Shown in pieces: positions 10,711 to 64,000 of a DNA stretch of 64,000 nucleotides. Every line of letters begins with the position of its first letter. The stretch's first letter is position 1. Location of the stretch: positions 394,506,001-394,570,000 of the forward strand of contig OZ024740.1 in the NCBI GenBank assembly GCA_964016885.1, given 5' to 3'. The notes under the pieces were generated by a model, which made no database searches, was not told the origin of the DNA, and saw only the letters and a list, made by a program, of their open reading frames with translations. The position numbers and the translations under genes were made by a program. Source of the DNA: Eledone cirrhosa. Taxonomy: Eukaryota.

Positions 10711-10744
10711 GTTGAAAAGGAGTGGAAAAGATGGGAAAGACCAC

Positions 10745-13247: not shown

Positions 13248-16200
13248 TTACAGATATATACTCAGAGTCGGCCCATTCACTCGGGCCATTCTTGCTTCTC
13301 TCACCCATCTTTCAACAAAATGCTGGGAAGAGAGCACTTCCTTCTCTACTCTGATTTTCCTTTTCAAATGAAATTTGAAAAAGTCAATCAGAGCATCACC
13401 GAAGAGGTAAGTGCTCGTCTTCAGCCCTTTCAAACGTGTCCACCATACTATCTCTTTCGCCATGGCCACCAGACAGATAAAAACTGCCTGCCCTTCCCGG
13501 CTAAAGGAGGAGGGCGGGGCAATCCTCACGATAGACTCAGATGATAGCTGGATCCGTCCTAAACGCGACAGCAGGTGTTCGACATAAACCCACAAGTCAG
13601 CAATTTTCGGACACTGGACGAGTGCGTGCAGGACGGTTTCGTCGCCCTGCGCGCATCTCGGACATGCCCGGCTGACGGCACCTCCATGCCTGTAGAGTTT
13701 ATCCCGAACTGGCAAGGCTCCTCGGTAGCACTGCCAGGCCAGAGATTTCTGGAAGTTGTCCATAGGCCCTGGCCCGAAAGTTCTTCCGAAGAGATTGGCT
13801 AGTTGATTTTCGTCGACGCCTAGAGTTTCCCCAAGTACGTCGTCGCTCTTCCCCTCCACTAATCCTCTATAGAACGCCGAGGTGGAGTTTCCACCGATCA
13901 CATTGCCCGATTGGTCGAGGGCTGTGAGCGCCTGAAGACATTCCAGTCTCCAGGCGCTCCCTCTCGGTCTTCGCTTGACCCAGGACTGCAGCTCCGTCAA
14001 GGAAACGAGCTGGGGAAAAACGCGTCTAGCAAACGGCGACCACACCTGATCACCGTCGAGGAAGAGGTGGAGATGTCGTAGCCTGAGCGCGTGCCTGCGC
14101 ATCATCAGCCACGGCATGCCCAGCCCTCCACGTAGCGGGTGTTGACAACAGATGGACCGCCTGACCATCGGAGCACGTCCCTTCCACAAAAAGCGAAAGA
14201 GCAAACGCTCCAGCGCAGTCAGGCGAGGCTTAGGACAAGGTACGACGGTTAGGCGGTAGCAGATGACAGACGCGATGTACGCGTTAGCCACCTCCGCTCG
14301 ACCTTTCAGGGATAGCTTCCTCTCCGCCCATTTCTGGGTGAGAGAAGCCACCCTGCTCGTCACCTCGTCCCAGTTTTTGTCCGTCTGGAGGTCCGGACCG
14401 AACCAGACCCCTAGCAATTTAACCGGTCCGTCCGTCCAGCGCCCGACGACGCTGTTGGACGGCATGGACCTGCCTCTCCAGGTGCCGAGCTGCAGGCCCA
14501 CTGACTTTTCCTGGTTGATCATTGCTCCTGTCACCGCTTCGTATTCTCTTAGTGTAGTGCCGATCGCCTCGATGTGTTTGGCGTTCGACACCACTACGGT
14601 GACATCGTCCGCATATGCTGACACGGATCTTCCGCATCCTAGTTCGCGCGGGACTCCCCTCAACGTCTCCAGTTTGTGCAGTAATGGCTCGAGAGTCAAT
14701 ACGTACAAGAGGGACGAGAGGGGACATCCTTGGCGGACCGAGCGCATGATGTTGAACGGTTCCGACAGGTGACCGTTCACTCTCACTACAGAGCAGATGT
14801 CGCTGTGCATGGAAGCGATCCAGCCTCTGAAGACGGGCCCAAAGCCAGCCGCCCTCAGGACTGCCGCTAGGTAACGATGGTCGACCCTATCGAAAGCTTT
14901 CGACTGATCTAAATTGATCAAGGACCCACCCGTGCCAGGTTCCCTAGCTACCCTCTCTACGATGTATCGCATGAGGTGGAGGTTGTCGTGGATGGATCTG
15001 TCGGGAATGGCGCATGTTTGCGCCTCTCCCACCAGACCACCAACGACAAGCGCCAACCTCTTTGCTAGCACCTTGGCCAAAATCTTAAACTCTGTGTTTA
15101 GCAGAGTTATGGGCCGGAAATTGTCTATGTTATCCCCCTTGTTCGGATCCTTTCTCAGCAGTGCCACTGCTCCTCGGCTCACAGAACTGGGAATTCTCCC
15201 GTTCTGTTGCCAGTTGCAGTAGACGTCCGCCAAGAGGCCTCCGAACAAGTCTGGCATCTGTACGTAAAGTTCATAGGGCAGACCATCCAAACCAGGCGAT
15301 TTACCCCTTGTGCAGCCAGTCATTGCCTCCCGTACTTCAGCGGCTGTTATCGGCTTTTCGCAACACTTCGCCTCAGTGGCCGAGAGCCGCGGCAGTCCGT
15401 CGAGGTAGACACTAAAGTCCATCCCTCTACCCGGCCCCCCGCTGCCCCCGAACAGCTGAGCGAAGTGTCGCTGAAAAGCTTCACACATTTGCCCGGGATC
15501 GAGTAGCATGCGCCCGTCGTGGTCCACCAAAGACCGGATCGTGGCTTTGTTGCCACGACGCGCCTCCGCCACTCGGGCCCATTGAACGGCTTTCGTCCCC
15601 TCGTGTCTGAGAGCACGCACCCTAGCTCTGACAACGCAGCCTTCGTGCTTTGCATTGAAGAATTGGTCAAGGGCCAATTTCGCCGCAAGCACGTCGGTCG
15701 CAATGCCTTTGCTAAGCGCCTCGTCTAATTTTCTAACTAGTTCTCCCTCTGCTCTATTTTTCTCTATTGCTAAAGCCTTACTAAACCTAATCGATTCTAT
15801 TCTAATCGCTCTTTTCAGAGCAAACCACCACTTGTTGACGATGGCCCCCGTCAACGCCCGCTTAACTAGTTCGCTAATCCGGTCTCTGTAGGCCTTGCGC
15901 GCTGGTAAGGACGCGTTTAGCTTCCAGTAGCCGGGTCCTCGTCTATGAAGCCTATCTAAGTCAAGCACACAGGTCACGAATTTGTGGTCCGTGTAGCTGA
16001 CTATCTTGAATTGTGGACAGCCTATGCTAGACCTATCTATTTCCCTACAAAATACTCTATCTAGATATGATCTGGATGACCCTATGCGGTTTGTCCAAGT
16101 CCACATTGGCACATTCGGGAAATCCAATCGGTACCTGTCAGACAGTTCAAAACGCCTGAGCAGGTTGGTGAGGCTCTTGCACCCTCCACCCCTATCCGCT

Positions 16201-16664
16201 AATCCCACACAGTCCCAGCGTGCATCTAAGATCCCGTTCCAGTCGCCCACTAACACTAAAGAGCGGGACGTTCCAAGAAAGGTCTCCAGACGCCGGAAGA
16301 AATCAGGCCGCCCTGCTCCTGTCGGGGCATAGACGGCCACTAGCCTGAAAGCTTGCCCGTCTCCGCTGGTCACGTCCAGCACCACCAGCTTACCCTCTGG
16401 GTCCAGGAAGATGGCCCGTATGGCGAGATCCAAACCTCTCCGAAAAAGCACAGCAACTCCTCCACCCGATCCAGGACGGCTGGGAGATGCGTACACATCG
16501 TAGCCGCCGAAGATTGGTGCGAAGGCCCGTGCTTCGGAGATTCTGGTCTCGCTGATGGCCACTACATCTATGTTTAGTGACCTGAGGTCGTTGAGCAGGT
16601 GACCCTGCTTCCATGACGACCCCAAGCCACGCGCATTTATGCTGCCTATTCTGAGTGAGGTCAT
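13248..16664 (-). CDS. Tx1 ORF2 (APE-RT-CCHC), 1138 aa, open
   Basis: Same motifs as 7291..10710. Confidence 0.95.
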   Translation of the reverse strand: MTSLRIGSINARGLGSSWKQGHLLNDLRSLNIDVVAISETRISEARAFAPIFGGYDVYASPSRPGSGGGVAVLFRRGLDLAIRAIFLDPEGKLVVLDVTSGDGQAFRLVAVYAPTGAGRPDFFRRLETFLGTSRSLVLVGDWNGILDARWDCVGLADRGGGCKSLTNLLRRFELSDRYRLDFPNVPMWTWTNRIGSSRSYLDRVFCREIDRSSIGCPQFKIVSYTDHKFVTCVLDLDRLHRRGPGYWKLNASLPARKAYRDRISELVKRALTGAIVNKWWFALKRAIRIESIRFSKALAIEKNRAEGELVRKLDEALSKGIATDVLAAKLALDQFFNAKHEGCVVRARVRALRHEGTKAVQWARVAEARRGNKATIRSLVDHDGRMLLDPGQMCEAFQRHFAQLFGGSGGPGRGMDFSVYLDGLPRLSATEAKCCEKPITAAEVREAMTGCTRGKSPGLDGLPYELYVQMPDLFGGLLADVYCNWQQNGRIPSSVSRGAVALLRKDPNKGDNIDNFRPITLLNTEFKILAKVLAKRLALVVGGLVGEAQTCAIPDRSIHDNLHLMRYIVERVAREPGTGGSLINLDQSKAFDRVDHRYLAAVLRAAGFGPVFRGWIASMHSDICSVVRVNGHLSEPFNIMRSVRQGCPLSSLLYVLTLEPLLHKLETLRGVPRELGCGRSVSAYADDVTVVVSNAKHIEAIGTTLREYEAVTGAMINQEKSVGLQLGTWRGRSMPSNSVVGRWTDGPVKLLGVWFGPDLQTDKNWDEVTSRVASLTQKWAERKLSLKGRAEVANAYIASVICYRLTVVPCPKPRLTALERLLFRFLWKGRAPMVRRSICCQHPLRGGLGMPWLMMRRHALRLRHLHLFLDGDQVWSPFARRVFPQLVSLTELQSWVKRRPRGSAWRLECLQALTALDQSGNVIGGNSTSAFYRGLVEGKSDDVLGETLGVDENQLANLFGRTFGPGPMDNFQKSLAWQCYRGALPVRDKLYRHGGAVSRACPRCAQGDETVLHALVQCPKIADLWVYVEHLLSRLGRIQLSSESIVRIAPPSSFSREGQAVFICLVAMAKEIVWWTRLKGLKTSTYLFGDALIDFFKFHLKRKIRVEKEVLSSQHFVERWVREARMARVNGPTLSIYL

Positions 16665-16699
16665 GTTTAAAATAGAGTGGAAAAGATGGGAAAGACCAC

Positions 16700-18829
16700 T
16701 TACCGTACTTTTGGTAGAGGAGGGATGGTTTTTACATCCCTTTTCACTTGATCGTCTGGTGAAGGGACCGTTGAATCGTCCCTTCGGCTGGTCGTCGGCT
16801 CTTCTAAGAGAATGTCTGAATATACTCTTCGATTGATGGTTCCTCCTAGGTCCCTGAAATCACCAACTGCGTTGGGGAATTTCGTTTTAATGTTTGTGTA
16901 TTGTTTCTGTGCTATTTTTAGCAGTCTTATGTTAGTTGGCGTTTTGATTGGTGCTGGTATTATGTAGTCCTGTTGTGAAATGTCTGTGTGTTCAATTATG
17001 TAAGTCATTAGTTTCTTGTTGTGTGTGTTTATTGCCGTGCATTTGTTTTTCTGGGGGTGGGGTGTGGTTCTGCTATTTTCTTGTCGTTGTTGCTGGGTGT
17101 GTGTGTTTTGTTGTTGTGTTTGCGATGTTGGTGCTTGTGGTGGTGGTGTTGAAGGTGTTGTTGGCGGTGGGGTTGTCGCCGGTGGTGATGGTGGTGCTGG
17201 TGTGGGTGGTGATGGTGTTGGTGGTGTTGCTGCTGTGGGTCTCTTTGCAGTAGACTTTACCCTTTTCTCATTTCTTTCCTCCCTTTTCAAAGGCGACGAT
17301 GCGCTGCTTCTGCGTTTGTGCCTTCTTGCGACCTTTTGCCATCCCTCTCCCACCTCACACTCCATGTCTGATTCTGTAAGGTCGGGGAGGGGTACCAGCT
17401 CCACTCTTTCACTTGTTGTTGTTGGTGATGTTTGCACTGGAGTCTCTGTTGCAGCTGCATTTGGTATTGCTGTTGTTGTTGTTAATATTTCCACTGCTGC
17501 TGCTGTCTTTGATTTCCGTGGAGTGGGTATGGGTTCCACGGACCTATCGTTCCTGGTTGCCGCTTGTCCTGTTGCTGGTAGCCGTGGAGCCGGATTCGGA
17601 AGGAGGGGGGTTTTCTCCTTTCTCAGGGTCTTCTCGTTGCAGAAGGCCCTGAGGTGAGTCTTCGATCCACAGCGAAAGCATTTCGAGCGTTTGCCCTCAA
17701 CACTTATGGGCAGTTGAGTGCCGTTATCGAAGTCTATCACATCCGGGATAGCTTCGATGCACTCCTGGTTGGTTTGGATTAGCATCTCAATGGAGGAGCC
17801 GACCCAATCTTCTCTTACTTTTTTCTGTACTTGCAGTACAGTTGTTTTGTCCTCGATTCCGATTAGGACAGACGCGGCCAGCCAAGAAGGGGTCATTCCG
17901 GGGGGGACGTGGGTCAGTTTGACCCTCACAATTTTTTGCCCGCAGTAGGAGGGCACCAACACCATTTCCTCGCTCCTTAGGGTCACTACTGATTGGGCCT
18001 TTGCCTCCTGGGGTGTGGCAAAAAGTACGTCTACGGTGGCATATTTTTTGCCTCGGGTGATGTGCGTTTTCCGCTGCCACACAGACCCCAAGGCTTTTTG
18101 TATTTGGGCCTCTGTGGCTCTTTCCACCCTACGGGATTTTGTACTTACTGTACGGTACGTGACCGTACAGTGCTCTTGGGTTTTGAAAAATTTTTCCGCT
18201 GCCTTGCAGATTGCTCGGTGTCCGTTCTTTGTCACCATCTTCTTCGCTTCCTCTAATTCCTCATTTGTTATGAGGATTGTTTCCAAGTTTTTCGCAATAC
18301 CTGCAAATGAGATTGGTTTTTCTCTGCTGTTGTTGTTGTCGTCAGAGCTGCTGGTACTTTTGTTGTTGCTGCAGGTACTACGACTACTGCCTCCGCCGCT
18401 GTTGCTGTGGTTGTTGTTGGTGTTGCTGCTGCTAATGCTGTTGTTGTTTATGCTGCTGGTGATGCTGTTGCGGCTGCTACTGTTGTTTTCATTGTCACTG
18501 TTGCTGTTGTTATTACGGCTGCTACTGCTATTATTCCTGACGTCAGACGAATGAACTGGGTTTTCGTATTTCCCGCACACCTGTTTCGTCGCTGTCGTCG
18601 TCGTCGTGGAGAAACCTTGCACGCTTTGCACGAGACTTTTCTTTTCTTTCGTCGCTTGCGAAAGAGAAGGGAGGGAGAGAGACACATTTAAAGAAGGGAG
18701 GGAGAGAGACAATCTTCTCTCTGCTGTAGTGATGATTGAGGAAGAAGAAGACGGAATGAGTGGGAGTGACGTATGAAATTTCTTTTTCGTAGCCATGTTT
18801 TTTTGTTTAAAATGAAATTTTGGGTACAA
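16700..18829 (-). CDS. Tx1 ORF1 variant, up to 709 aa (start may be the MATKK ATG about 30 nt inside)
   Basis: Knuckle CFRCGSKTHLRAFC; Ser/Asn-rich N-terminus; core alignable to ORF 4785..6491. Confidence 0.85.
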   Translation of the reverse strand: MYPKFHFKQKNMATKKKFHTSLPLIPSSSSSIITTAERRLSLSLPSLNVSLSLPSLSQATKEKKSLVQSVQGFSTTTTTATKQVCGKYENPVHSSDVRNNSSSSRNNNSNSDNENNSSSRNSITSSINNNSISSSNTNNNHSNSGGGSSRSTCSNNKSTSSSDDNNNSREKPISFAGIAKNLETILITNEELEEAKKMVTKNGHRAICKAAEKFFKTQEHCTVTYRTVSTKSRRVERATEAQIQKALGSVWQRKTHITRGKKYATVDVLFATPQEAKAQSVVTLRSEEMVLVPSYCGQKIVRVKLTHVPPGMTPSWLAASVLIGIEDKTTVLQVQKKVREDWVGSSIEMLIQTNQECIEAIPDVIDFDNGTQLPISVEGKRSKCFRCGSKTHLRAFCNEKTLRKEKTPLLPNPAPRLPATGQAATRNDRSVEPIPTPRKSKTAAAVEILTTTTAIPNAAATETPVQTSPTTTSERVELVPLPDLTESDMECEVGEGWQKVARRHKRRSSASSPLKREERNEKRVKSTAKRPTAATPPTPSPPTPAPPSPPATTPPPTTPSTPPPQAPTSQTQQQNTHTQQQRQENSRTTPHPQKNKCTAINTHNKKLMTYIIEHTDISQQDYIIPAPIKTPTNIRLLKIAQKQYTNIKTKFPNAVGDFRDLGGTINRRVYSDILLEEPTTSRRDDSTVPSPDDQVKRDVKTIPPLPKVR

Positions 18830-19030
18830 AACCCCAATAACTGGTTATTTAACCCCGAAGGGCCAAATAACGGACAGAAAGACCCCTCTCACGAGGAGGA
18901 GGGTGTCTTTATCAACAATTTGGTTCAAGTTTTAAACAATTTACAATTGTTTTAACGGTTAAAAATTACTATACCTTACAGAGCCGAGCCTCCGTCAACC
19001 ATGGCATTCAATAATAATAATAATAATAAT

Positions 19031-29670: not shown

Positions 29671-29712
<42 letters not shown>

Positions 29713-29826
29713 TAAGAGGAATTCCAACTTTGTCTGATTTACTCGTTTTATTTACAATCCTTTAAAATATATATAATGGTATTATAATGAAATAGTATGA
29801 TAGAATATTAAATTCTAAGTGTTAAT

Positions 29827-29865
29827 TGAACAAGTACTTTCATGCTTTCGCAATCTTCAGGTTCA
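29827..29865 (-). ncRNA. Minimal type I hammerhead ribozyme (inverted pLTR copy)
   Basis: Reverse complement of 32954-32992. Confidence 0.78.
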
Positions 29866-30056
29866 TGATATGTGGTGACAGTCGAGTTTGCAATTTTCAA
29901 CTGTAATGAGATGGGTAAATTTCCTACCTTTTATACATTTTATACAGAGAAAAGTGGCTCCAGAATGCAAAGCCCTGTAAACTGTATTACGACCAATCAG
30001 TGTGTAGTTTCACTGAATTACTACAGCTGATTGGTTTAAGCATCACGGCTGGTTGA

Positions 30057-30344
30057 AGAAACTGGACGAAAAAACGATCTAAACCTGAAAGCAAACCTAG
30101 GTCATTTTCCCAGATTGTTAAAAATAATGCTAACAGGAAGAAAAATAATATACAGAATACCAAAAATAGGACAAAATACATAACGAAACCAAATATAATA
30201 TCACGACCAAAAGTTCATCAAGCGAACACCAACAGGAATATAAATCCTGAACAGAGAAAAATTCATTTTTTAACGTCAGGACAACAAAAACCGGAAAAAG
30301 AAAAACTCCAGGAGGAAACATACCCAAAACAGCTGTACACGTAG
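30057..30344 (+). CDS. 3' part of an upstream ORF1 overlapping the RT frame (truncated by the inversion)
   Basis: 95 stop-free codons to TAG at 30342-30344; contains T-TTT-TTA at 30266-30272. Confidence 0.6.
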   Translation, partial: RNWTKKRSKPESKPRSFSQIVKNNANRKKNNIQNTKNRTKYITKPNIISRPKVHQANTNRNINPEQRKIHFLTSGQQKPEKEKLQEETYPKQLYT

Positions 30345-32578
30345 ATCCTAAAATAATTAATTTATCTAAAAGAGATCTTGACAATGATGAAATGCAAATT
30401 CTGTCAAAAGGACTGAAATTCACACCGACTCCAACAGTCAACCACCAAGAACTGAAGGAGGATACCCAAGAATTCTGTCGAAAATTACGTCTTGTAGAAT
30501 TCTTCGCTGATAAAAATAATGAGAGTGATGAATCACTAGTAAAGAATAAATCAAATTTCACTCCGCCAAAAGGAAGAAATATCTATCTCGACCAATACAT
30601 TGACATCCTGTCTAAATTTCCTCTTAGACATAATACTAATGTTAGGCCAAACATTAACAAATCAGAAATGTCTGCACTTAAACGTATACAAAATGATAAA
30701 ACAATAATAATTAAACAAGCAGATAAAGGGGGTGCAGTTGTTATAATGGATACTGAATACTACAAGGATTTGGTTGAGGAACAACTGAAAGACACAACAT
30801 TCTATCATGAAATACCGTCAAATATAGACCACAACATCATGAAGAAGATCAACAACCTGGCTTCAAAATACCACAACTCATTTACTGATAAGGAAAGAGA
30901 CTACATCACCAATTTTGAGCCGAAACCCAGCAACCTGTATGGCCTACCGAAAGTTCACAAGGCAAAAGAAATACAACTGGCAGTAAGAGAACAAAACAGT
31001 GAGTACATTAAATTATTACACCCAAAAGACTTAAAACTTAGACCTATTATAGCTGGTCCAACATGCCCCACTCACCGTCTAAGCAATTTTGTTGACATTA
31101 TTTTGAAACCACTATGTATTCACATACCCAGTTTCATCCGGGATGATATCGACTTCCTGTCCCATCTTCCCAAAACCACGGAAACGAATTCACTTCTACT
31201 CAGTTTTGATGTGGTAAGCCTTTACACCAACATTACACATGATTTAGGAATAAAGGCGGTTAAATACTGGGTGGAAAAACATAGAGAAGTGATTCCCATT
31301 AGATTCACAGCGCCATTTATATTAGACGCAGTTAAACTTATTCTGGAAAACAACACTTTCTTCTTCAATGGAAAGAATTACATCCAAATTAGAGGCACAG
31401 CGATGGGAACGAAGTTTGCTCCCGTTTACGCGAACTCTGTAATGGGATACTTAGAACAACAACTCTACCAAGAAATAGAGGAAAAATATAGTACTGACTT
31501 TAGAAAGTACATTGAAAAATCTTGGAAGAGATACCTTGACGACTGTTTCATCATCTGGACAGAATCTTTAGATACTCTGGATGAGTTCAATATCCTCCTG
31601 AATAACCTACACCCATCTCTCCAATTCACAAAAGAGATGAGTAGGACCAAATTACCATTCCTAGATATAATGATAATCAAAAACGACACCACCATTACCA
31701 CGGATATATATTATAAACACACAGACACCCATCAATATCTGAATTTTAAGTCGTGCCATCCACCTCATACAAAACGCAACATCCCATACTGCCTAGCCAG
31801 AAGAATTTGTACCATTGTAGAAGATACGAATACCAGGTACAAACGCCTAACAGAACTAAGAGAATTTTTGCTCAAACAAAAATACCCATCTCTACTTATA
31901 GAAAATGGCATACAGCGGGCTATAAAAATACCTATACAACAACTTAGAACAACCCAAAGAAGAAGAAACCAAGAACTGGTCATACCATTTATAATGACAC
32001 ACAACCCATGTCACCAGAATATCTTCAACACTGCCAAAGCAAACCTACCGATCATTGCTCAAAGTAATGAATTAAAAGGCTTAATCACAGATCGATCTTT
32101 GACTCTTAGTAAAAGACAGCCAAAAAATTTGAAGCAATTGCTAACAAAAGCAAAGTTTGACCTTAACAACAAAGACCAATCATTCACTGTATCTAAATGC
32201 AATGATAATCGATGCGGCACATGTCAATCCATACACGCCGGTCAATATATGAAAACAAAAACTGGAAAAATATTCACAAATGCAAATATGAACTGCAAAA
32301 GCAGAAATCTAATTTACTGCATTAAATGCCCGAATTGTGAAGAACTATATGTCGGTCAAACTGGAAATGCACTATCGGAACGTGCACGGGTACACCGTCA
32401 ACAAATCAGAGACCCAAATGTCCGTCAGATACCCCTAAGCGGCCACCTGGCAACATGTGGTCAGGGAATATTTATAATATTCCCATTCTACAAATTACAC
32501 AGCCCAAATGAAATCAAGAGAAAAATCAAAGAAAAGAATTTTATTGATAAATTCAAACCCAAGCTAAATGAACAATAA
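30266..32578 (+). CDS. PLE RT + Cys linker + GIY-YIG endonuclease (first ATG at 30392; frame open from 30251)
   Basis: KIINLS, ADKGG, FDVVSLY, GTAMGT, RYLDD, LPFLD, C..RC..C linker, LIY..CPNC..YVGQT..R..H. Confidence 0.93.
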   Translation, partial: FFNVRTTKTGKRKTPGGNIPKTAVHVDPKIINLSKRDLDNDEMQILSKGLKFTPTPTVNHQELKEDTQEFCRKLRLVEFFADKNNESDESLVKNKSNFTPPKGRNIYLDQYIDILSKFPLRHNTNVRPNINKSEMSALKRIQNDKTIIIKQADKGGAVVIMDTEYYKDLVEEQLKDTTFYHEIPSNIDHNIMKKINNLASKYHNSFTDKERDYITNFEPKPSNLYGLPKVHKAKEIQLAVREQNSEYIKLLHPKDLKLRPIIAGPTCPTHRLSNFVDIILKPLCIHIPSFIRDDIDFLSHLPKTTETNSLLLSFDVVSLYTNITHDLGIKAVKYWVEKHREVIPIRFTAPFILDAVKLILENNTFFFNGKNYIQIRGTAMGTKFAPVYANSVMGYLEQQLYQEIEEKYSTDFRKYIEKSWKRYLDDCFIIWTESLDTLDEFNILLNNLHPSLQFTKEMSRTKLPFLDIMIIKNDTTITTDIYYKHTDTHQYLNFKSCHPPHTKRNIPYCLARRICTIVEDTNTRYKRLTELREFLLKQKYPSLLIENGIQRAIKIPIQQLRTTQRRRNQELVIPFIMTHNPCHQNIFNTAKANLPIIAQSNELKGLITDRSLTLSKRQPKNLKQLLTKAKFDLNNKDQSFTVSKCNDNRCGTCQSIHAGQYMKTKTGKIFTNANMNCKSRNLIYCIKCPNCEELYVGQTGNALSERARVHRQQIRDPNVRQIPLSGHLATCGQGIFIIFPFYKLHSPNEIKRKIKEKNFIDKFKPKLNEQ

Positions 32579-32781
32579 TAACGCCTAGGGGTATTACTTC
32601 TACTACCACTATGACCACGACCACTAACAACAACAACAACAACAATAATAATAATAATAAAAGTGATGTTGATGGTGATGATTAATAGAAAATGCTATTT
32701 TCATCATTTCAAAAAAGCAAAACAATTGATACGTTGGATATGACTATTGGTCGTTAGCATGCTCAACCAGCCGTGATGCTT

Positions 32782-32892
32782 AAACCAATCAGCTGTAGTA
32801 ATTCAGTGAAACTACACACTGATTGGTCGTAATACAGTTTACAGGGCTTTGCATTCTGGAGCCACTTTTCTCTGTATAAAATGTATAAAAGG
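32782..32892 (+). promoter_or_regulatory. Putative pLTR promoter: two opposed CCAAT boxes and tandem TATAAAA
   Basis: AACCAATCAG..CTGATTGG then GTATAAAA twice, about 65 nt upstream of the hammerhead. Confidence 0.45.
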
Positions 32893-32953
32893 TAGGAAAT
32901 TTACCCATCTCATTACAGTTGAAAATTGCAAACTCGACTGTCACCACATATCA

Positions 32954-32992
32954 TGAACCTGAAGATTGCGAAAGCATGAAAGTACTTGTTCA
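32954..32992 (+). ncRNA. Minimal type I hammerhead ribozyme in pLTR
   Basis: TGAAC-CTGAAGA-T-TGC-GAAA-GCA-T-GAAA-GTAC-TT-GTTCA; palindromic stem III AGTACT. Confidence 0.78.
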
Positions 32993-33185
32993 ATTAACAC
33001 TTAGAATTTAATATTCTATCATACTATTTCATTATAATACCATTATATATATTTTAAAGGATTGTAAATAAAACGAGTAAATCAGACAAAGTTGGAATTC
33101 CTCTTATTAATATAATCTTCTATACACAATCATACACACCTGTGTATATTTACCTATCTATATCTATATATATATATATATATAC

Positions 33186-44366: not shown

Positions 44367-45580
44367 TTATTTACATGTTACAGGTTGGTTGTTTGTTCTA
44401 TGTGCGTGTGTGTTTTCATTTTGTCCTTTATTGTAAGTTGTGATGTTGCTGTTCCACTCATATTTTCTATTTAATTTTGGTTGTATTTCTTTTATGTTTA
44501 TTGCCTCAGTGATTTGTCTAAACATTGCGTCTTTTCTGTGTGTAGATTCTATTTTTATTTCTATGTTCTCTAATTTACCCTTATGTTCTATTTTAGCATG
44601 TTGGTAGAGTACAGATGATTCTTTACTATCTTGAAGGTCTCGCCAGTGTTCATTTATCCGTTCCCCTACACTACGAGCTGTCTCACCTATGTACACTATG
44701 TTTTTGTCTCTACATTGTCCTTCAGTACATCTTATGCTATATACTACATTTCTAGTTTTACAGTTAATATGGGGGCTTAATTTACAGGTTATACATTTCT
44801 TATCTATACAGGGGGGTCTTTGAAAAGGGCATGTCTTGCTAATAAGTGTTTTTACGGAGGTACCTGGTCTTTCTACTATCTTAATATTGAGTTTATGTTT
44901 GTCTAGGGCCCTTCTAAATTTGTAAGATAATTCACCTCTAGGGGTTGTATCGATGAACATTACACTCTGGTATTTATTGCTATCATACCATGAGTTTATT
45001 CTATTAGCCTTATTCCTAGTTCTTTCTATTCTATTCCAAAATTTGCTCCTATACAAGGGGCAGGTCCCATTTGTGTCATTATTTACCATTTTTTCCCATT
45101 TGGTTCTGGCTCCTCTATACACTATTTTTTTATCTCTCTGATTGTAACCAGAGAACTGCATACGGTGGATGAAGTGTTGTATGTGTCTCTCTAGATCTTC
45201 GGGGTTGCACATGCGGGACACATTTCTCATCACCCGTACCAAATCCGCAATCAGTATGTTGATTTTGGTATGGTCCGAAACAGCTGAGTTTCGGTGGATC
45301 AGATATTTGGAAGTCATGGGTTTGGCATAATGGGAATGGAGGATTTGTTTTTTGTTATTAATGGTATCTAACCAGAGCTCTGTGTCTAGTACAGGTAATC
45401 GATGGTTGGGGTGTTTACTTGGGTAGTCTATAGTAACTCTAATACTCTGGTGGATGGAGTTAGCTATTTGCTGGATGCTTTCCATTGTGTTTTTCTCTAA
45501 TTCCTGACTGGTCTCTAGTGGGGGTGTTTTAACTACGATGTTTATATCATCAACGTAGCGGGAGTACATTATCAGGGTTA
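44367..45580 (-). CDS. Open C-terminal RT/GIY-YIG portion carried in the inverted arm
   Basis: 406-aa ORF matching the forward copy but without its lesions. Confidence 0.75.
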
Positions 45581-45585
45581 ATAAC

Positions 45586-48500
45586 ACCTCGAGAACTACA
45601 CTTCATAAAAGAATGTGCCTCGTCCCGAGTTTACACCAACACCATCAACACTGATGTAAGAAGATTACAACTCACCAAAAAGCAAGCAGATAGGCTAAAA
45701 CGAACACTAATTCTAAACATAAAAAAGAAGATCTATAGAGAATTAATTCATCAAGAAAAACATAAGCGTAACCTAATACAAGAAATAACTAAGATCACCA
45801 CACCAAGAGAAAAACTAATATTTATAAGCCTTATACGTCCTGAAGAACAGTACATTGCTCAAGAATGTGATAAGCACTTTAACAAGAAACTAAAGTGGCT
45901 TAAGCAGATAAAACTAAATCAGGATACTGTAGAGAATACCAATAGATATCCCGACAAAATTGACGGTATAAATATGGCCGGCATCTCATTAACAGATGAG
46001 TTCAACAACAACAAGACAAATATATACGGCAACACTGCAGTAGATCCTGATTAATTATCTGTATTACAACTACCACCGAAATATGCGACATTCAAGAAGG
46101 TAAATATGATTAGTTGTTTGTTAGAAATAGAAAAATTCATTTATTAAATTACGTTGGAGCCTCAAAAACAAAAACAAAAACAAAAGTAACAACATACGCA
46201 CACACTCACACATATACAACACACATCCCAACAACAACAGACACACAGACACAAACAATAATAACAACAACACACACATCAAGAATAATAACATACTCAG
46301 AAACAACAACAAAAGACACGCAGACACAAACAACAATAACAACACACACAACAATAATAACACACACGGAGACAACAACAACAACACACACACATTCAAT
46401 GCCTCTCACCACCACCACAATCTTAACAAACACACAGACACAGAAAACATGTAATAATAGTAGCACAAAAATAAGGGAAGGTAATAGGATTAAAAGGAGA
46501 AGGGAGACTATGGACAAAGAAAATAACCAAGACGAACACACAGACACACAAAATAGTGTAGATAATAACAATGAGCCAGTGGAAAGAGACAGGAGTAATA
46601 ATGAGAGACATAGAAAAACCATGAGGCTGTTGGTGGAAATAGAAATAGAAACAACACAACTAACAATAACAATAGCACTAGTACACATAAAGCAGCAGCC
46701 AGGAACTTTACTTTTTATAATCCCTCTGATAAGTCGTTCGACCTGCGACGAGTACACGCCACGACTTTACCATTTAACAAACGCACGCAATTGCCGTCGC
46801 AGGTCGATGAACAAACAGAAGCACAATTTAGTATAGCTAGATCCGAACTTAGAAATATTATAGAACAGTATAGCAAGAAGCATAATAGAATGGAGGCCCA
46901 GCAACTGGGAGAAAAGTCTGCAAATGGCTTGCGTAAGCTCATGCAGCGCTCGTGTAATGGAGAGATAGCATGCTTTCCATCAGACAAGTCTGGCAGAATG
47001 TCGGTTGACAGCCTGCCAAACTACATCCAGGCAATGCAACCCCACATCACCAACACAAGAGAAGTAACACCACATGAGCATGAGGATAGAGAAAAAGCCC
47101 TCAATGCCCATATGGTGATGTGGACGAATATAATGCAGCCCAACAAAAGGACTGCCAACAACTTCCAGGCATGGAACAATGACGTACCGGCGTTGTATGG
47201 GCTTCGAAAAGACCATAAAACGGGCAGTGACCCTGTCACGGGACCGCCAAAACGGCCAGTCTGTGGAGCTAACATTGCTAGTAACTACAGACTGTCCTAC
47301 TTCCTCTCCCTGATCATACGCCCCATTATTGAAATGTCCCCAGATGTACGTGACAGCACGGAGGACCTCCTCAGCAGAATCGGAGAGAGTAACCGATCTA
47401 GGGACCTAACAAACTGCATAATAGGTAGTATGGATGTTGTGTCCCTGTATCCATCTATTGACATGGAATTTGCTGTGGAGAAATGCGTAGAAATGATCAG
47501 TGAGAGCAATGTTGAGTTCCGTGGGATTGACACCAGTGAGCTGGGACTTCTACTTAAACTTACCTATAGTAATAATTACCTAGACACATATGACCTTAGC
47601 AACCTGTGCCCTACAAGACCAGCAAGAGGCAGACCACCTACCATTACCTCAATGGCCAAGAAAACCCACACAGATAGATGGAACGGGTGGACCAGAGCCA
47701 TACGGACCCCCGAAAACAACGATGAACTGAAGAAAATGATTGCACATGCGGTGGGGGCCAGCATAAAATTAACCCTTAAGGAACATATGTTCAAATTTAA
47801 TGGAAAAACATATGCCCAAGAGGAAGGAGCAGCCATTGGTGTTAGCATTGCAGGCGACATAGCTAACTTATTCATGGTATGGTGGGACAGTAGACTTAAA
47901 CTTAAACTTAAAGAACAATTAGAAGACCCCTTACCCCTGATAATGTACTCCAACTACGTTGATGATATAAACATCGTAGTTAAAACACCCCCACTAGAGA
48001 CCAGTCAGGAATTAGAGAAAAACACAATGGAAAGCATCCAGCAAATAGCTAACTCCATCCACCAGAGTATTAGAGTTACTATAGACTACCCAAGTAAACA
48101 CCCCAACCATCGATTACCTGTACTAGACACAGAGCTCTGGTTAGATACCATTAATAACAAAAAACAAATCCTCCATTCCCATTATGCCAAACCCATGACT
48201 TCCAAATATCTGATCCACCGAAACTCAGCTGTTTCGGACCATACCAAAATCAACATACTGATTGCGGATTTGGTACGGGTGATGAGAAATGTGTCCCGCA
48301 TGTGCAACCCCGAAGATCTAGAGAGACACATACAACACTTCATTCACCGTATGCAGTTCTCTGATTACAATCAGAGAGATTAAAAAAAAGTGTATAGAGG
48401 AGCCAGAACCAAATGGGAAAAAATGGTAAATAATGACACAAATGGGACCTGCCCTTTGTATAGGAGCAAATTCTGGAATAGAATAGAAAGAACTAGGAAT

Positions 48501-49124
48501 AAGGCTAATAGAATAAATTCATGGTATGATAGCAATAAATACCAGAGTGTAATGTTCATCGATACAACCCCTAGAGGTGAATTATCTTACAAATTTAGAA
48601 GGGCCCTAGACAAACATAAACTCAATATTAAGATAGTAGAAAGACCAGGTACCTCCGTAAAAACACTTATTAGCATTACATGCCCTTTTCAAAGACCCCA
48701 CTGTATAGATAAGAAATGTATAACCTGTAAATTAAGCCCCCATATTAACTGTAAAACTAGAAATGTAGTATATAGCATAAGATGTACTGAAGGACAATGT
48801 AGAGACAAAAATATAGTGTACATAGGTGAGACAGCTCGTAGTGTAGGGGAACGGATAAATGAACACTGGCGAGACCTTCAAGATAGTAAAGAATCATCTG
48901 TACTCTAACAACATGCTAAAATAGAACATAGAAATAAAAATAGAATCTACACACAGAAAAGACGCAATGTTTATACAAATCACAGAAGCAATAAACATAA
49001 AAGAATTACAACCAAAATTAAATAGAAAATATGAGTGGAACAGCAACATCACAACTTACAATTAAGGACAAAATGAAAACACACACGCACATAGAACAAA
49101 CAACCAACCTGTAACATGTAAATA
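45586..49124 (+). pseudogene. Forward PLE ORF with frameshift near 48383, stop near 48908 and a low-complexity CA-rich block near 46160-46450
   Basis: ORFs 46791..48383 and 48390..48908. Confidence 0.85.
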
Positions 49125-53385: not shown

Positions 53386-56076
53386 CTAATGGATACAATT
53401 TACACTACCAGAACTTTTAGGTTTATAATAAAAGTAAGAATTAGAAATGGCGTGGGGGCAAGAAGAGAATATCTCAGACTTTCTATTAAGTAAGAGTTCC
53501 CTAGAGAAAATTATAGAGTGGGTCTCAAGGATACAGAGATTACAGAATTTAATGTGTGTTGATAGGTTATTAGAGCGTGCTACTATTCGCCAATTAAGGC
53601 TATATGGTATATTAGCCCCCTTAAGATCCCAGATATGGTGTGCTAAAGAAGTAGAATTCTTAAACTTAACATGTTTAAGATTAGAGATATGAGAATTAAA
53701 CCTAGTCTTAAAAGTGTTAGATGTTGAGCCTATATATGTGCTATTAGAGGAATTAGTTTTAACTACACAAGCATAAACGATGTTCTTAGAGAGGCAGTTA
53801 CCGTTTAAAGGGCAGTTAACACTCACTCTACAGTTACACTTCCGGGTGCTATTAATCGGCTGAAGTAGTGATGCATCCCTCGTAGGGTTACTATGAGATA
53901 AGGTCTGCTCAGGTGGTAAGGCATTTATGGATCTATCCAGACTAGTAGTACGCAGAGAGGAATAGCCATCCCTAATTTTCCCATTGTTAGTGCTAGCTAA
54001 ATGAGAACTAATATTAGGGGTGGTAGAGAATGATAGTTTAATTACATTTTTATTAAAAATACCATGGTATTTATTAGTAGGAGGGAAATGTTTCTCTAAG
54101 ATAGAAAAGAAAGACCTAGGGATGTTAGTTAATACTTCCTGATTATATGGCGGGTTAAAATAAGTATTTAGTCTCCTTCTATTTCTATCCTTACCAACTC
54201 TACCGTTATCTAATATCCCATTATTATTAAGATCTGGGTTACTACGAGGACTAGTTAAAACCACATTATTAGAATCAGCCGAAACTCCATTGAGTTTCTT
54301 TCTATTTCTACCTTTAGTATATCTGCTGCTATCTGGAATCATATCAAAAGGATTAGGGCTAATAATAGGATCAGTAGAAACAACACTATTAGAATTAGAT
54401 TTAGCATAAGCATTACCACTGAGTGAGCGCTCAGAGCGCCCAACTTGATCCCTAGAACTATTAGATTCACTATTACGAATCCGGTGGCTTAACTTATGGA
54501 TGGGTTCGGATACACCTATGTGATTTCTACGATTCTTATGCTTTCTACTCCCATTCATGGCCATATTATGGGATATTATGTTATTATTATTATATGTAAG
54601 CGGAGACTTTCTAAGGTTACTATTATTATAATGTATTTTACCAGAGTAACCGGAGCTAGCTAGGGCGTTATTATAGTACTCTGCATGTGCATTAAATATT
54701 CCTATGTCCTTAGAGAGTGTGGAAATTCTATTAGATACACCATTAATTATAGAGCTTATCATAGATTTGGGGTGGTTAGAATTGGGACTAACATAAGAGA
54801 GTATTTCATTAGGCTTATGGAAGGGTTTAAAACTATTAGTGACCAAGTCCAAAGTCACATCTAAAAAGTTGACCGCTCTATCATTTCTATCTATCGTGAT
54901 CGAAAGGTTAAATCTTTTAAAAAACTTGTAAAGTTTCTTCTTATTATGCTCGATATTATTGGTGCTAGAGTTAATCACAAACAATGCGTCGTCACGATAA
55001 AGTCCGCCTTTAAGGTGCGGAAAGGTAACATACAGTTCATTTAGGAGGAACAGCCCAACAAGATCAGTTACCAGGGCCGAATCACTCGAACCCATTGTAA
55101 CGTCGAAATTGTTGGGCGTGTTTTTACGGGTCCAAAATGCATCCTCAAAATTGATGATAGTTCTACGGGCTGCTAGTATAATATCAATCTGTGATCGTGT
55201 AAGGCTGGACACTCTCATGGCCATCATTAAGGCTTTATTAAGGAGGATAGGTGAAATCGATGTGTAATAGGCATCAATATCAAACTGGATAAACCTACTA
55301 GATTCAAGTTTATTAATACCAGAGAACCAATCTATAACCTCCTTAGTGTTCCCCCATAGATTAAAATTAACCTTCTCCCTAACGGCTGGTACAATAAGGT
55401 CAGGGATTTTCTTACTAATTATGGCTATATCAGACTTAGAAGGACAGATGAGTCTAACAGAGGGATTACTAATGAAGTCTACCTTATGATCCTTAAGAGT
55501 GAATCTCGGTTCCCTAGGGTAATATGGCTGGGTATACTTATCAAGGCCAAGGTCCGAGACTATCTTAAGACCCTCATTATTGATATGATCCAAATTATCT
55601 TGTGTAGTCTTTTTATAATTTCTATGCAGCTCCTTATAAATAAAATTACGGTAAGCACTGTAATCCATAGAGTATAGATTCTTAGTCTTATCAGCCGGGA
55701 CAAGAATAGACTTATTCTCTCTAAAACCCTTAACAATATTTTTATGTCTAGACTGGAACCTGTCAAACTTATTATAATTTCCATGTCTATTATATGGCCT
55801 ATACTTAATATTTTTGACAAAGGAAAGTAAATCATTTTCAAAATTATCTAATAGAACATTATGTGGTGGGCTCTTATAAGTTTTGAAGCCAAAGTTATTG
55901 AAAGGAGTTCTATGCCTGGGGTCAGTCCTATTCCTATTAATATCAAAGTGGAAAGCACGCCATCTAATCCTTTTTACGAAGGAGTTAACACTAGCAATTA
56001 AGAGTTATTCATAATTATTTCTAGAGGGGATGGGAATATTTTTCAGAGATAAAGGCATGTAGATCGTTGTTAGCAT
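53386..56076 (-). pseudogene. PLE RT-GIY-YIG ORF, 896 codons, with a single premature TAA at 56007-56005
   Basis: Frame of ORF 53386..55668 continues upstream through ADKTKNLY, FENDL, FGFKT, KRIRWRA and SLKNIPIPS to ATG 56076. Confidence 0.85.
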
Positions 56077-57875: not shown

Positions 57876-60800
57876 TCAGCTCAAAGCTTCATTATAGACA
57901 ATATTCAGGGTTGTTCCTCTGTTAGTGGTATCAATTGCAAGTTTTATACCATCAGGATCGTACACTCGAGATGCAGCAACATACAGTTGCCCATGGCTGA
58001 ATGCTGGATCATTCAAGTAGACACCGACTCGCTTGAAAGTCTGTCCCTGTGCCTTGTTGACAGTCATGGAGGGGACCAAATTGACGGGAAACTGTCTCCT
58101 TTGCCAAATGAATGGCAGCAGATCTTCACTTGGTCTCAGCATGATCCTCGGAATGAGAACCGATTCCTCTCTGCCTGGGAGTTTAGCTTCTAAAACTCTT
58201 CCATTAATCAATCTCTCAACAATCAATCTGGTACCATTGCAAAGACCCATTTTATGATTGATATTTCTAAGCAATATAATCGGCATACCCTTTTTCAACC
58301 TCAAAATATATGGGGGAAATCCGGGTATTTGAAGATACTCAGTCGGAACATCCATATTGTTCGGCTGATTAGGCTCCATTGCATCCGCACTGACGGTCAA
58401 CCATTCCTCTCCAGGAAACATTCCGGCTACTTGTGAATTTATTTCATCGACCGTTGCATTCGTATGAGTTAGAATAATGCGTTCCGATATCCAGGAGATA
58501 TTCTGCCCAAAAGCATTCAAATTAGGGAACACCCAGTTAATCAATGCTTGGAGGTCCAGTGGCATGACCAAATGGTCTGGGATTCTTAGAGTCTGATTAT
58601 CACCAACGTGTGGCAATTCATCGTTTCCCAACTGCATCAACCATCGGCCGTATGTCTCAGCCTCTTCGTTTTGCCCGAACATACGAAGTCGCATATTATC
58701 GTGTAATCGCAAAACTCTGAAATGGCGCCACAACGGGGACTTTTTCAGACATGCATCGACAATTTGCGCTCTTTGAGCATTCCTAACAATTGGTAACACC
58801 TGTCTGAAATCGTCACCAAGAACGATAGTCTTACTACCGCAGATATCTCTCAAAGTTCTGTCCAATGTCTCCAGCAAATATCTGTGTGCCATTGGAGCCT
58901 CGTCCCAAATAATCAGAGACGTATTGCGTATAAGGCCCGCGAGTTCACTTTGTCCTGCAATGTTACAGACACTCAACTCATCCGAAGCCAATGGAGCCTT
59001 GAAGCATGAGTGGAAGGTCCTTCCACCACTCAGCAAAGTAGCAGCGATCCCACTGGTAGCCACAGGGAGAGCAATCTTCTTCTGAGCTCTGACTGTCGAT
59101 AACATAGTGTTGAAACAGAATGTCTTTCCGGTGCCTCCTGGAGAATCTATGAAAGCACAAAGTTGCTCATTAGTGGAAATCGAGTGGAGAACGCCATCGA
59201 CCAATTCTCTCTGAGATTGGGTCAACATTGGCATACGTTCATCCACAATACGTTGCTGTTCCAGTGGATCAAACTGGAATAGTTCTCTCCGATCGAGTGG
59301 CAACCGTCTCAGCTGCAATCTCATGTTCAATGCTAAGACACGTTGCCGCATTTCTTCATCAGGAATTGGCAAATTGAAATCTCTTAAACATTTCAAATGA
59401 ACTTCAAGCAGTTGCTCAATATTGAGCAAAACAATAGCCTTCATCAAATTTTCATCATCGACCTGAAGATGATGCCTAAAATCATCAGCCATAATTCCTC
59501 AATGGCGTTCAAATAACTCTCTTAGATCGGCAGTATTGCAGAATCCTAGAATCGTGACAAACAACTGCCTTATTTGAGCTGGCATCTGTGTTGTTCTTGC
59601 AGCTTTCATGGCGTTATTCCATTCAGCGTCATCCTGAAGGAGTCCCAGATGTTGACACACAGCCTGGTATGTTTCATATTCCACGCCATTGATTGTTTTC
59701 AAATCAGTGAAGCTCTGTTTACCTCTCGAAAAATCATTATGCAACAGAATTCGGAGATAAAATACATCACCAGATGCTGGATGGACATTACAAACCCGTC
59801 CAATAGTCATGAATCTCAACTTTTGTTTTCTATCATTCCATTTCCTTCCCTTCTTATCCCACGTATAGTGCGAAGGGAAATCTCAGTAGAGGTGCCTTTG
59901 ATCCTGGTTCAAAGCATGTTCCCTATTATGCTTGAACCACTTAGTCAATTCCGTCTTAGGAGGTGGTGCGTTAGCAATTCTTTGGACACCGCTTCTAGTG
60001 TCCTGAAAACAGACCATTTGCATATTCTCTAAGTAAACCGTCAGTTTCTGAACGCTGGGTTTGCGTTCATTGAGATGAAAATCGAACAATCTCCAGGAAG
60101 CTTCGTTAGATCCAATCGAGTGAACATCCTGGAACCTGCCAACTTCATCTCCTTGGTTCGCTTCCTCATTCCTGACATTGATCATTGCCCGATCATGACC
60201 TTTGTAAACATATTTGAATAGATATTTGCAAGCTTTCACTGAACTACAAATTTCCACATTAATATGACAACGATATTTCATAATCAAATATGGATTGTAT
60301 GGCACAACCCATTGATTTGTAACCAGTCAACCGTTTACATTTTCGACCAAACTGCCATCTTCAGGCGACCGTCTTCTGTATGAGGGATGAGCATCCCCAT
60401 CGTTCCAGGAAGTGTTTGTGACAAAAAATTTCGGAAATTGCTTACTGCATTGGCCATTTTTCATGCAAGGCGCTTTCCGATTTGCCACTCCGCATTGGCT
60501 GTTCACCATTGACTTTGCCACCAAGTTGCGTAGTACCTCATTCTCTGGCAGTTCAGCACATACAACGCTGTCGACATCTTCAGCACATCTCAATTTGCAA
60601 TCTCTATGTAAAATGATCAGCAAATGTGCATGTGGCAATCCTCGTTTTGGGAATTCAATTACGTATGTAAAAGCAACTATACCTCCAAAGATTCCCTCTT
60701 TTTCCACATCATCCATTATCTTTTTCAGATATCCTTTGCCACAATATCAGGACGGTCCTTTGGCTGTTGTCCTGGAAAAAGTGCATCCTTAATATCAGTC

Positions 60801-62634: not shown

Positions 62635-62691
<57 letters not shown>

Positions 62692-62695
<4 letters not shown>

Positions 62696-64000
62696 TCGAA
62701 AACTGGTTCCTCAAATATGAAGAAGACTTTAAAAGGACGCACCAAACAGGTAACCCCTTTATAAAGCATTTGAACATAACAAGAACTACAACAGACACAT
62801 TTACACCACCAAACCCAACACACACTAACCACAGGCACATCCCCCACCAACACAAACCAAATACGGCCAACTACACCAAAAGAAACACACCCAACCACCA
62901 CAACACAGGTTTCCGTAGAAATGCCCCCTACATAAACCAACGACGAAATAACATAGATCCAACTCACAACACACACACCACATTCCTCAGAAGAAATCCA
63001 CCCAGACCACTTGAAATCACAACAGAACTTACCCACAACCACACCAGACATCACCCTCAATCCAACAAAAGACAACCCCCCAGCCTCAACACTCTGTACC
63101 ACAGAAATAACGCACCCAGACCACATGAACCAACAACAGAACTCTTGCTCATCAACAACCACAACACATACCACCCCCACCATCACATTCACCCTCATGA
63201 AACAACAAGCTACAGACCCACACGCAACAGACCAACAAAATATAATCACACACAAAACTACATTCCTTTTTTAGGGAAAAGCCTGAAATACCAGGATACT
63301 CGATGGCCCCCCCTCAGGAGAAACCAAAAATAATCAACCTCTCAAAGACACCTCTAACCAACACACAAATCAACATTTTAAGTAAGGGCCTGAAATTTAC
63401 ACCTACACCACGTAAACCAAACTTCCCCGAAATGAAGGATGACATCATGGAATACTGCCGAAAGCTGCGACTAACGGAATTCTTCCACAACGACACCAAC
63501 ACTGAAGACGAATCACTGGTTAGAAATAAAAGCAATTTCTGCCCACAAAAGGGAAGAAATAAAGCACTGGACACGTACTGCGAACACATCACCAACTTTC
63601 CCTATGAAAAAATTACAAATAAACACACGAAATCAAACCTATCTACACACGAATGGGAAGAATTATTCACACTTAGAAACAACCCTGAGATAACTATCAA
63701 AGAAGCCGATAAAGGCAGTACTGTTGTCATTATGAATACGGACTACTATAGGACCCTCGCACTTAACATTTTAGAAAACAACACATACTATGAAAAAACA
63801 GAAAACTACAAACACACCAAAACAATGGGGAACCTTTTGACCTTACTGAATAAATACCGCAACAGCTTAACCACAAAAGAGTTTAACTATATAAGCCACT
63901 TCAAATGCAATACAAGCTCTTTTTACGGCTTACCGAAAATTAAAAAATGTAAACCCATAAACGATGCATGTGACACCTCAACCAACAATTACATTGAACT
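62692..64000 (+). mobile_element. Neptune-type PLE, 5'-truncated at (TA)n, running off the window end
   Basis: Upstream ORF open from about 62695 to 63333; RT frame KIINLS..LSKGLKFTPTP..CRKLRL..ADKG..YGLPK. Confidence 0.9.

Follow-up and report, generated by a model that had tools for sequence, protein, structure and literature searches.

The Penelope-like retrotransposon at the end of the window (the whole 64,000-nt stretch of Eledone cirrhosa DNA analysed here, part of a 3.0-Gb genome) combines two overlapping reading frames, ORF1 and ORF2, with a slippery heptamer that lies in ORF1 register and is conserved at the DNA level. Programmed −1 ribosomal frameshifting is very probably the best explanation of this two-ORF layout. 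With the −1 slip and the low slip rate that we infer from sequence, most ribosomes would translate ORF1 alone, and a minority would slip by −1 at U_UUU_UUA to produce a fusion of ORF1, reverse transcriptase (RT) and endonuclease of about 1170 residues. Endonuclease-bearing (EN+) Penelope-like elements (PLEs) are the sister group of telomerase RT. If our reading is true, the single-ORF picture of these elements needs correcting, and the annotated RT proteins of the two-ORF group would be devoid of their real N-terminus. A further outcome is an ORF1 family of at least 817 clusters, as yet uncharacterised.

A two-ORF Penelope-like element

Judged by its sequence features, the focal element is an EN+ PLE of a widespread two-ORF group, and its family (heptamer at 63267) is a young Penelope-like family. 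Pfam RVT_1 was found in both PLE families of the window and Pfam GIY-YIG in the second one, which has its heptamer at 30266. In the focal family a GIY-YIG motif with CxxC was read directly, which provides the two cysteines between GIY and YIG that are expected of an EN+ PLE. In one locus (L034), sequence 5′ of ORF1 is repeated 3′ of ORF2 (positions 2074 and 6851), as in a pseudo-LTR or partial tandem. Both window families contain a CX2-5CxxC Zn-finger-like linker between RT and endonuclease, a feature that defines Neptune elements (PMC3846280) and is common to Neptune and Nematis (PMC8557442). The label Neptune rests on this linker, and our RT tree comprised relatives without named Neptune or Nematis references.

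Full copies of the focal family contain an ATG-started ORF1 of 421 aa that overlaps RT-GIY-YIG in the −1 frame, and ORF2 of intact copies extends over 768 codons from the heptamer through RT, Cys linker and GIY-YIG. Instead of the single ORF that is canonical for EN+ PLEs, two overlapping ORFs were present in every intact copy examined. The copy in the window follows a (TA)n tract and starts at about 62697, and homology to other copies sets in at base 8 of a query that began at 62690; the upstream ORF is therefore a 5′-truncated ORF1 (Table 1). Truncated copies of this kind are numerous in the family. The window copy is dead: its endonuclease lacks 1 nt at a point about 1.3 kb beyond the end of the window. 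Its ORF1 and RT frames overlap by 88 nt, and the RT frame reads SHTKLHSFF-REKPEIPG...KPKIINLS. An earlier note on this DNA had located the closing TAA, the hairpin and ATG 63303 as in Table 1, and CCT TTT TTA GGG at 63265-63276; all of these coordinates are correct.

Table 1. Features of the two Penelope-like families in the window.
Feature	Position	Strand	Remark
Focal family
(TA)n microsatellite	62640..62696	.	5′ junction of truncated copy; likely insertion target
ORF1, 3′ half	62697..63333	+	5′-truncated in window copy
TAA closing the RT frame	63243..63245	+	7 codons before heptamer
ORF2	63246..64000	+	RT in window; Cys linker and GIY-YIG beyond window
Slippery heptamer U UUU UUA	63267..63273	+	ORF1 register; predicted −1 frameshift site
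Hairpin CCTG-AAATAC-CAGG	63282..63295	+	4 bp; not conserved; probably not stimulator
Asp-Thr-Arg-Trp codons	63295..63306	+	ORF1 frame
Internal ATG	63303-63305	+	RT frame; created by overlapping ORF1-frame TGG
TGG	63304-63306	+	codon 11 past heptamer (ORF1 stop position in sister lineages)
C7 run	63307..63313	+	length unstable in many genomic copies
ORF1 stop TAA	63331..63333	+	19 codons past heptamer, within KIINLS codons
Second family
Slippery heptamer	30266..30272	+	same heptamer as in focal family
ORF2 (RT + GIY-YIG)	30251..32578	+	no Met before IINLS motif

Conservation of the heptamer within the genome

All of the 30 best copies of the focal family have the heptamer in register at a constant spacer length; 13 of these 30 keep a 402-codon ORF1 from ATG to heptamer, and in 27 of them ORF2 remains open to the end of the locus. 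A pattern search for the junction gave 181 matches, and the first 100 listed comprise 94 exact sites, 5 substitutions, 1 deletion and no insertion. Some genomic copies have ORF1 and RT fused in frame through indels. Four runs of a single study provided contigs that span the stretch, and those of X1 and X3 bridge the heptamer without a gap; this material is possibly the assembly's own sample and is not independent. The C run past the Trp codon (63307-63313) varies in length among copies (L071-L130, L178, L179). In a non-random sample of 51 distinct junctions, 30 have at least 9 C, and among these 14 are out of RT register and 23 have no TGG. This variation may reflect RT slippage or sequencing error.

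The same layout, U6A in ORF1 register followed by RT in the −1 frame, was found in seven families of this genome, with spacers of 54-81 nt that are all multiples of 3. We collected these families by pattern searches (479 and 443 matches versus 4 and 7 for controls) and with an ORF1 protein query; families from heptamer patterns possess the site by construction, and the protein query is independent of the heptamer. Two of the seven surfaced via the protein query, one of them already present in the heptamer pattern search. The earlier note had proposed to survey the frame offset of heptamers upstream of IINLS, and across these families the offsets are not random. Shuffling the 88-nt overlap 100,000 times produced an in-register U6A in 0.03% of cases and any canonical heptamer in 10%. 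Given this latter frequency, the evidential weight rests on conservation. As in a programmed −1 signal, an X XXY YYZ heptamer lies in 0-frame register within the overlap, the downstream ORF is in the −1 frame, and the heptamer is conserved against flanks that cannot be aligned.

The second PLE family of the window is 48% identical to the focal family in RT-EN. A homologous ORF1 of 449 aa is present in 11/30 loci of this family and the same heptamer site in 30/30. The likeness that the earlier note had seen between the two families holds for heptamer and register, and fails for the distance from heptamer to KIINLS, which is 78 nt in the 30266 family versus 54 nt in the focal family. An inverted terminal copy flanks the 30266 family (29710-30055 and 32760-33110). 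By eye, positions 32959-32989 resemble a hammerhead core, without an Rfam match; Rfam searches of four loci gave no hammerhead match, only microsatellite-driven matches below gathering scores.

ORF1 and its homologues

A profile search with ORF1 returned 817 clusters at E 0.001, with named members from Pinctada and Mytilus. Among the best 150 of these 817 clusters, 76 of 330-520 aa were counted, 72 shorter ones were left out and two were longer; none of the 150 reaches the length of the fusion. The search for longer fused forms gave one Mytilus gene model alone, which is weak evidence. The database protein P0073 joins ORF1 to RT. Phe-Leu occurs within the last 60 aa of 66 of the 76 full-length homologues, compared to 6 and 10 for the two preceding control windows, and is missing from the other 10. 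The residue that precedes Phe in these 66 proteins is H, S, N, P, R, Y, D, L or G, and in no case K, Q, E, M or W (0/66; background 21.6%; p 1e-7). This bias implies that the preceding codon ends in U, and hence that U_UUU_UUA is present at the DNA level.

AlphaFold models the first 240 residues of ORF1 as long helices (pLDDT 91), and the C-terminal half is of low complexity and rich in T, N, P, H and R. The profile and structure search of ORF1 suggested by the earlier note gave the 817 clusters described above, and neither Pfam (no family above cut-off) nor Foldseek against PDB and viral models (nothing at E 0.001) returned a match. An esterase match was also sought and not found, and viral contigs contained no relative of ORF1. 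The best VIA-align score (Z 8.9, rmsd 6.4, 124 aligned) came from helical bundles of a generic kind, syntaxin Habc among them, which we rejected because it is within the background for helical proteins. We infer that ORF1 may have a Gag/ORF1p-like role in RNA packaging.

Relatives in metagenome DNA

Scanning metagenomes with the RT N-terminus yielded 80 loci, from which we dropped 10 that had insufficient sequence upstream and 18 that were near-duplicates or broken; one dropped duplicate carried the heptamer. In a quick RT tree of the 52 retained rows, 21 rows form a supported single-ORF group, and one of these 21 has an in-register heptamer, with a stop immediately after it. Outside this group an in-register heptamer is present in 24/31 rows (Fisher p 1e-7, calculated for rows that are not independent). 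These 24 sites comprise 21 U6A or U6G, one U_UUA_AAC, one C_CCU_UUU and one doubtful case, and five of the 7/31 related rows without a heptamer are sister to rows having one. Of 20 metagenome loci with an upstream ORF1 domain, 14 have RT in the −1 frame relative to this domain, 3 are mixed, and the other 3 have both in one frame, with stops between the ORF1 domain and RT. None of the 21 rows of the single-ORF group has an ORF1 domain match. In many members of this sister group (L203-L223, L227, L235, L238) the RT frame stays open upstream for 110-340 codons. The claim of the earlier note that the −1 architecture is conserved, and not the product of a chance indel, is thus upheld in family copies, in the seven families, in ORF1 homologues and in metagenome DNA.

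Alternative explanations of the layout

The codons at 63295-63306 bear on the question of where translation of RT begins. All differences over this segment among five copies of four families are synonymous in the ORF1 frame (Asp-Thr-Arg-Trp), and the RT frame retains 0-3 of its 4 residues. Synonymy in the ORF1 frame only identifies the internal ATG as a shadow of a selected TGG. It also indicates selection on ORF1-frame codons beyond the heptamer, which would be expected where most ribosomes stay in frame. The ATG that the earlier note had offered as an independent start is present in frame, and this role largely falls away with its explanation as a shadow of the conserved TGG. Separate production of RT from ATG 63303, whether through leaky scanning, through reinitiation or on a subgenomic RNA, would agree with three related families in which the ATG is in frame upstream of KIINLS (first RT-frame Met = codon 10) and with the killifish Neptune, whose ORF1 and ORF2 are called non-overlapping (PMC12602865). 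It is nevertheless very improbable: the first RT-frame Met of four other families is at codon 40, 57, 121 or 153, behind conserved RT motifs, Met precedes IINLS in 2/26 loci only, a sister family has GTG and retains the overlapping ORF1-frame TGG, and ATG 63303 itself is preceded by 17 AUGs and has a pyrimidine at −3. This route also leaves the heptamer unexplained. Production of RT solely from the internal ATG, by which the earlier note would have let its reading fall, is not borne out by these 26 loci, and we dropped the ATG as a general start.

A 3′ splice acceptor at TTTTTTAG, through which splicing would join RT to part of ORF1 or the 5′ UTR, is very unlikely too. Although AG follows the T run in 17/26 loci, including the focal site, 9/26 loci have no AG there, some of them with U_UUA_AAC or C_CCU_UUU, and the replacement of U_UUU_UUA by other slippery heptamers in some relatives argues against a splice site. 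Conserved introns are known in PLEs (PMC8557442, Fig. 1 legend), and in the 30266 family an in-phase AG follows 6 nt later; yet the next codon cannot begin with G in 21/66 proteins, a strong in-phase donor is absent from ORF1 in 3/4 families tested with none shared, and splicing does not require a fixed ORF1 register. The variants U_UUA_AAC and C_CCU_UUU, which are ribosomal slippery sites and not homopolymers, also speak against slippage of RNA polymerase on the T run, which would add one U to generate a minority of fused mRNAs. This we consider extremely unlikely, even though the conserved element is a homopolymer run in most loci and an extra T appears in one low-depth contig of run X4: the T run is only six long, its register is fixed, and an extra T is found in 0/100 listed copies, though these copies are made from RNA. 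Passive spread of a single-ORF element after a chance indel had broken it has a practically negligible probability. The description of canonical EN+ PLEs as single-ORF (PMC8557442) and the dead copy in the window would fit such an event, but the same offset and site recur in other hosts and between families with 48% RT-EN identity, and the ORF1 homologues are stand-alone proteins (0 of the best 150 at fusion length).

What could stimulate the predicted shift

If the layout is explained by programmed −1 frameshifting, a hairpin is probably not what stimulates it. Folds downstream of the heptamer have z values of +0.9 to +1.2 versus shuffles in the focal family and a mean z of −0.3 to −0.4 over 26 loci (ViennaRNA, which models no pseudoknots). 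A z below −2 was reached by 1/26 loci at 45 nt and 3/26 at 70 nt, and no stable stem-loop was found 5-9 nt downstream of the heptamer. The CCTG/CAGG hairpin of the earlier note does exist as a 4-bp inverted repeat; as a stimulator it was dropped, being neither conserved nor stable and folding no better than shuffles.

In 20/66 proteins exactly 10 codons separate Phe-Leu from the ORF1 stop; none has a shorter distance, and the remaining 46/66 have longer tails. In 11/26 DNA rows the stop is likewise exactly 10 codons past the heptamer. After collapsing by hand, 8/22 lineages have this spacing (p 2e-4 against 0.08). The 10-codon tails share no peptide and are poor in Gly (0.45 versus 2.0 per 10 residues in longer tails). 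Their members fall mostly into one clade that includes the focal family (19/26 rows; 8 changes on the quick tree), which suggests long retention and not many origins, and they are not independent. We ruled out that the stop at +11 is a mere shadow of the IINLS codons, which are located at codons 14-29 in those loci.

Previous work on E. coli reporters has shown that −1 slipping of the trailing ribosome increases when the one ahead is stalled at a stop, with a peak at a 9-codon spacer (PMC6815119). The minimal collision gap in yeast is 10 codons, and human disomes accumulate at stops (bioRxiv 2023.02.01.526718). Drug-induced queuing occurs at bacterial stops (PMC7544508), and SARS-CoV-2 also depends on where the 0-frame stop lies, with a different proposed route (PMC8168617). 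A ribosome terminating at an ORF1 stop 10 codons ahead would hold the ribosome behind it at the slippery site, and we tentatively propose such a stalled ribosome as a plausible stimulator in many relatives. Two intact-looking relatives (L191, L197) have the ORF1 stop 3 and 4 codons past the heptamer, which does not fit the collision spacing.

The ORF1 stop of the focal family is 19 codons past the heptamer, not 10. Codon 11 is Trp in this family, in three other families of the genome and in P0001, P0003 and P0014, and these lineages nest among those with a stop at codon 11, with one stop lineage within the group (weak support). The geometry given by the stop would be retained if ribosomes paused at UGG or on the Asp-Thr-Arg-Trp peptide; that a UGG pause within Asp-Thr-Arg-Trp replaces the stop in the focal family is an unlikely proposal. 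Alternatively, the heptamer of this family might act alone, without a stimulator. The broader picture would be that of a large animal Neptune clade with a structure-free signal, in which an HIV-type heptamer is driven by a collision one footprint ahead, at a stop in most members and at a Trp codon in the focal subclade, and in which ribosome load adjusts how much RT is made; as a whole we regard it as somewhat unlikely. A second conserved ORF1-tail peptide ending in Trp, Asp-His-Asn-Trp, is kept in another subgroup 4-6 codons before the stop (L186, L187, L196, P0024, P0062, P0066, P0078, P0099).

Relation to known systems

The HIV site is followed by a stem-loop. The focal element differs from HIV-1 gag-pol in that it is not an LTR element and has no stable stem-loop past the site. 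It resembles HIV-1 gag-pol and LTR sites in the identical heptamer, U_UUU_UUA being the HIV shift site, in the upstream structural-type ORF and in the enzyme as a predicted minor fusion (PMC5009743, an excerpt of which does not mention 'Penelope'). As in the E. coli collision reporters, the slippery site of many relatives is placed one ribosome-length upstream of the 0-frame stop, and no RNA structure would be needed (PMC6815119). Those reporters are engineered, bacterial and spaced by 9 codons, whereas the present arrangement is natural, eukaryotic, spaced by 10 codons and deduced from conservation, with UGG in place of the stop in the focal family. In the literature covered, collision stimulation of −1 slips was demonstrated only in engineered bacterial reporters (PMC6815119). 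The fixed 10-codon stop spacing and the UGG swap in the focal family would represent natural constructs for asking if collisions act as programmed stimulators of frameshifting in animals.

Canonical EN+ PLEs have been described as single-ORF elements (PMC8557442). In contrast to the Neptune clade as presented in this paper, the elements described here have a separate conserved ORF1 of 400-450 aa that overlaps RT in the −1 frame. The killifish Neptune is reported to have two non-overlapping ORFs, with no frameshift in the text searched (PMC12602865), and some fish and mollusc Neptunes contain esterases (PMC5408684). Unlike the latter, the focal ORF1 has neither a Pfam family nor an esterase match. 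EN− Athena elements were reportedly described by Arkhipova in 2017 as PLEs with a frameshift-separated ORF1 and a pseudoknot. The Fig. 1 legend of PMC8557442 refers to an ORF1 set apart by a frameshift with a pseudoknot; it does not name the clade and may already cover Neptune. The PLEs of this legend are like the focal element in that a coiled-coil-like ORF1 is joined to PLE RT by a frameshift; the focal element is different in having an endonuclease and no detectable conserved downstream structure. Our literature search found no description of the present signal, though a prior description is possible.

Other elements in the window

A third, broken RT element of a different type occupies 45400-49050, with a weak RVT_1 match, Cys motifs, a GIY-YIG-like end and no IINLS junction. 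On the minus strand, two adjoining LINE-type elements (7291-12334 and 13248-18844) each combine a long ORF1 with an APE-RT ORF2. Also on the minus strand, an 872-codon ORF without a Pfam match adjoins a Pif1 helicase ORF (53386-56004 and 57876-59498), and the pair is possibly a Helitron remnant.
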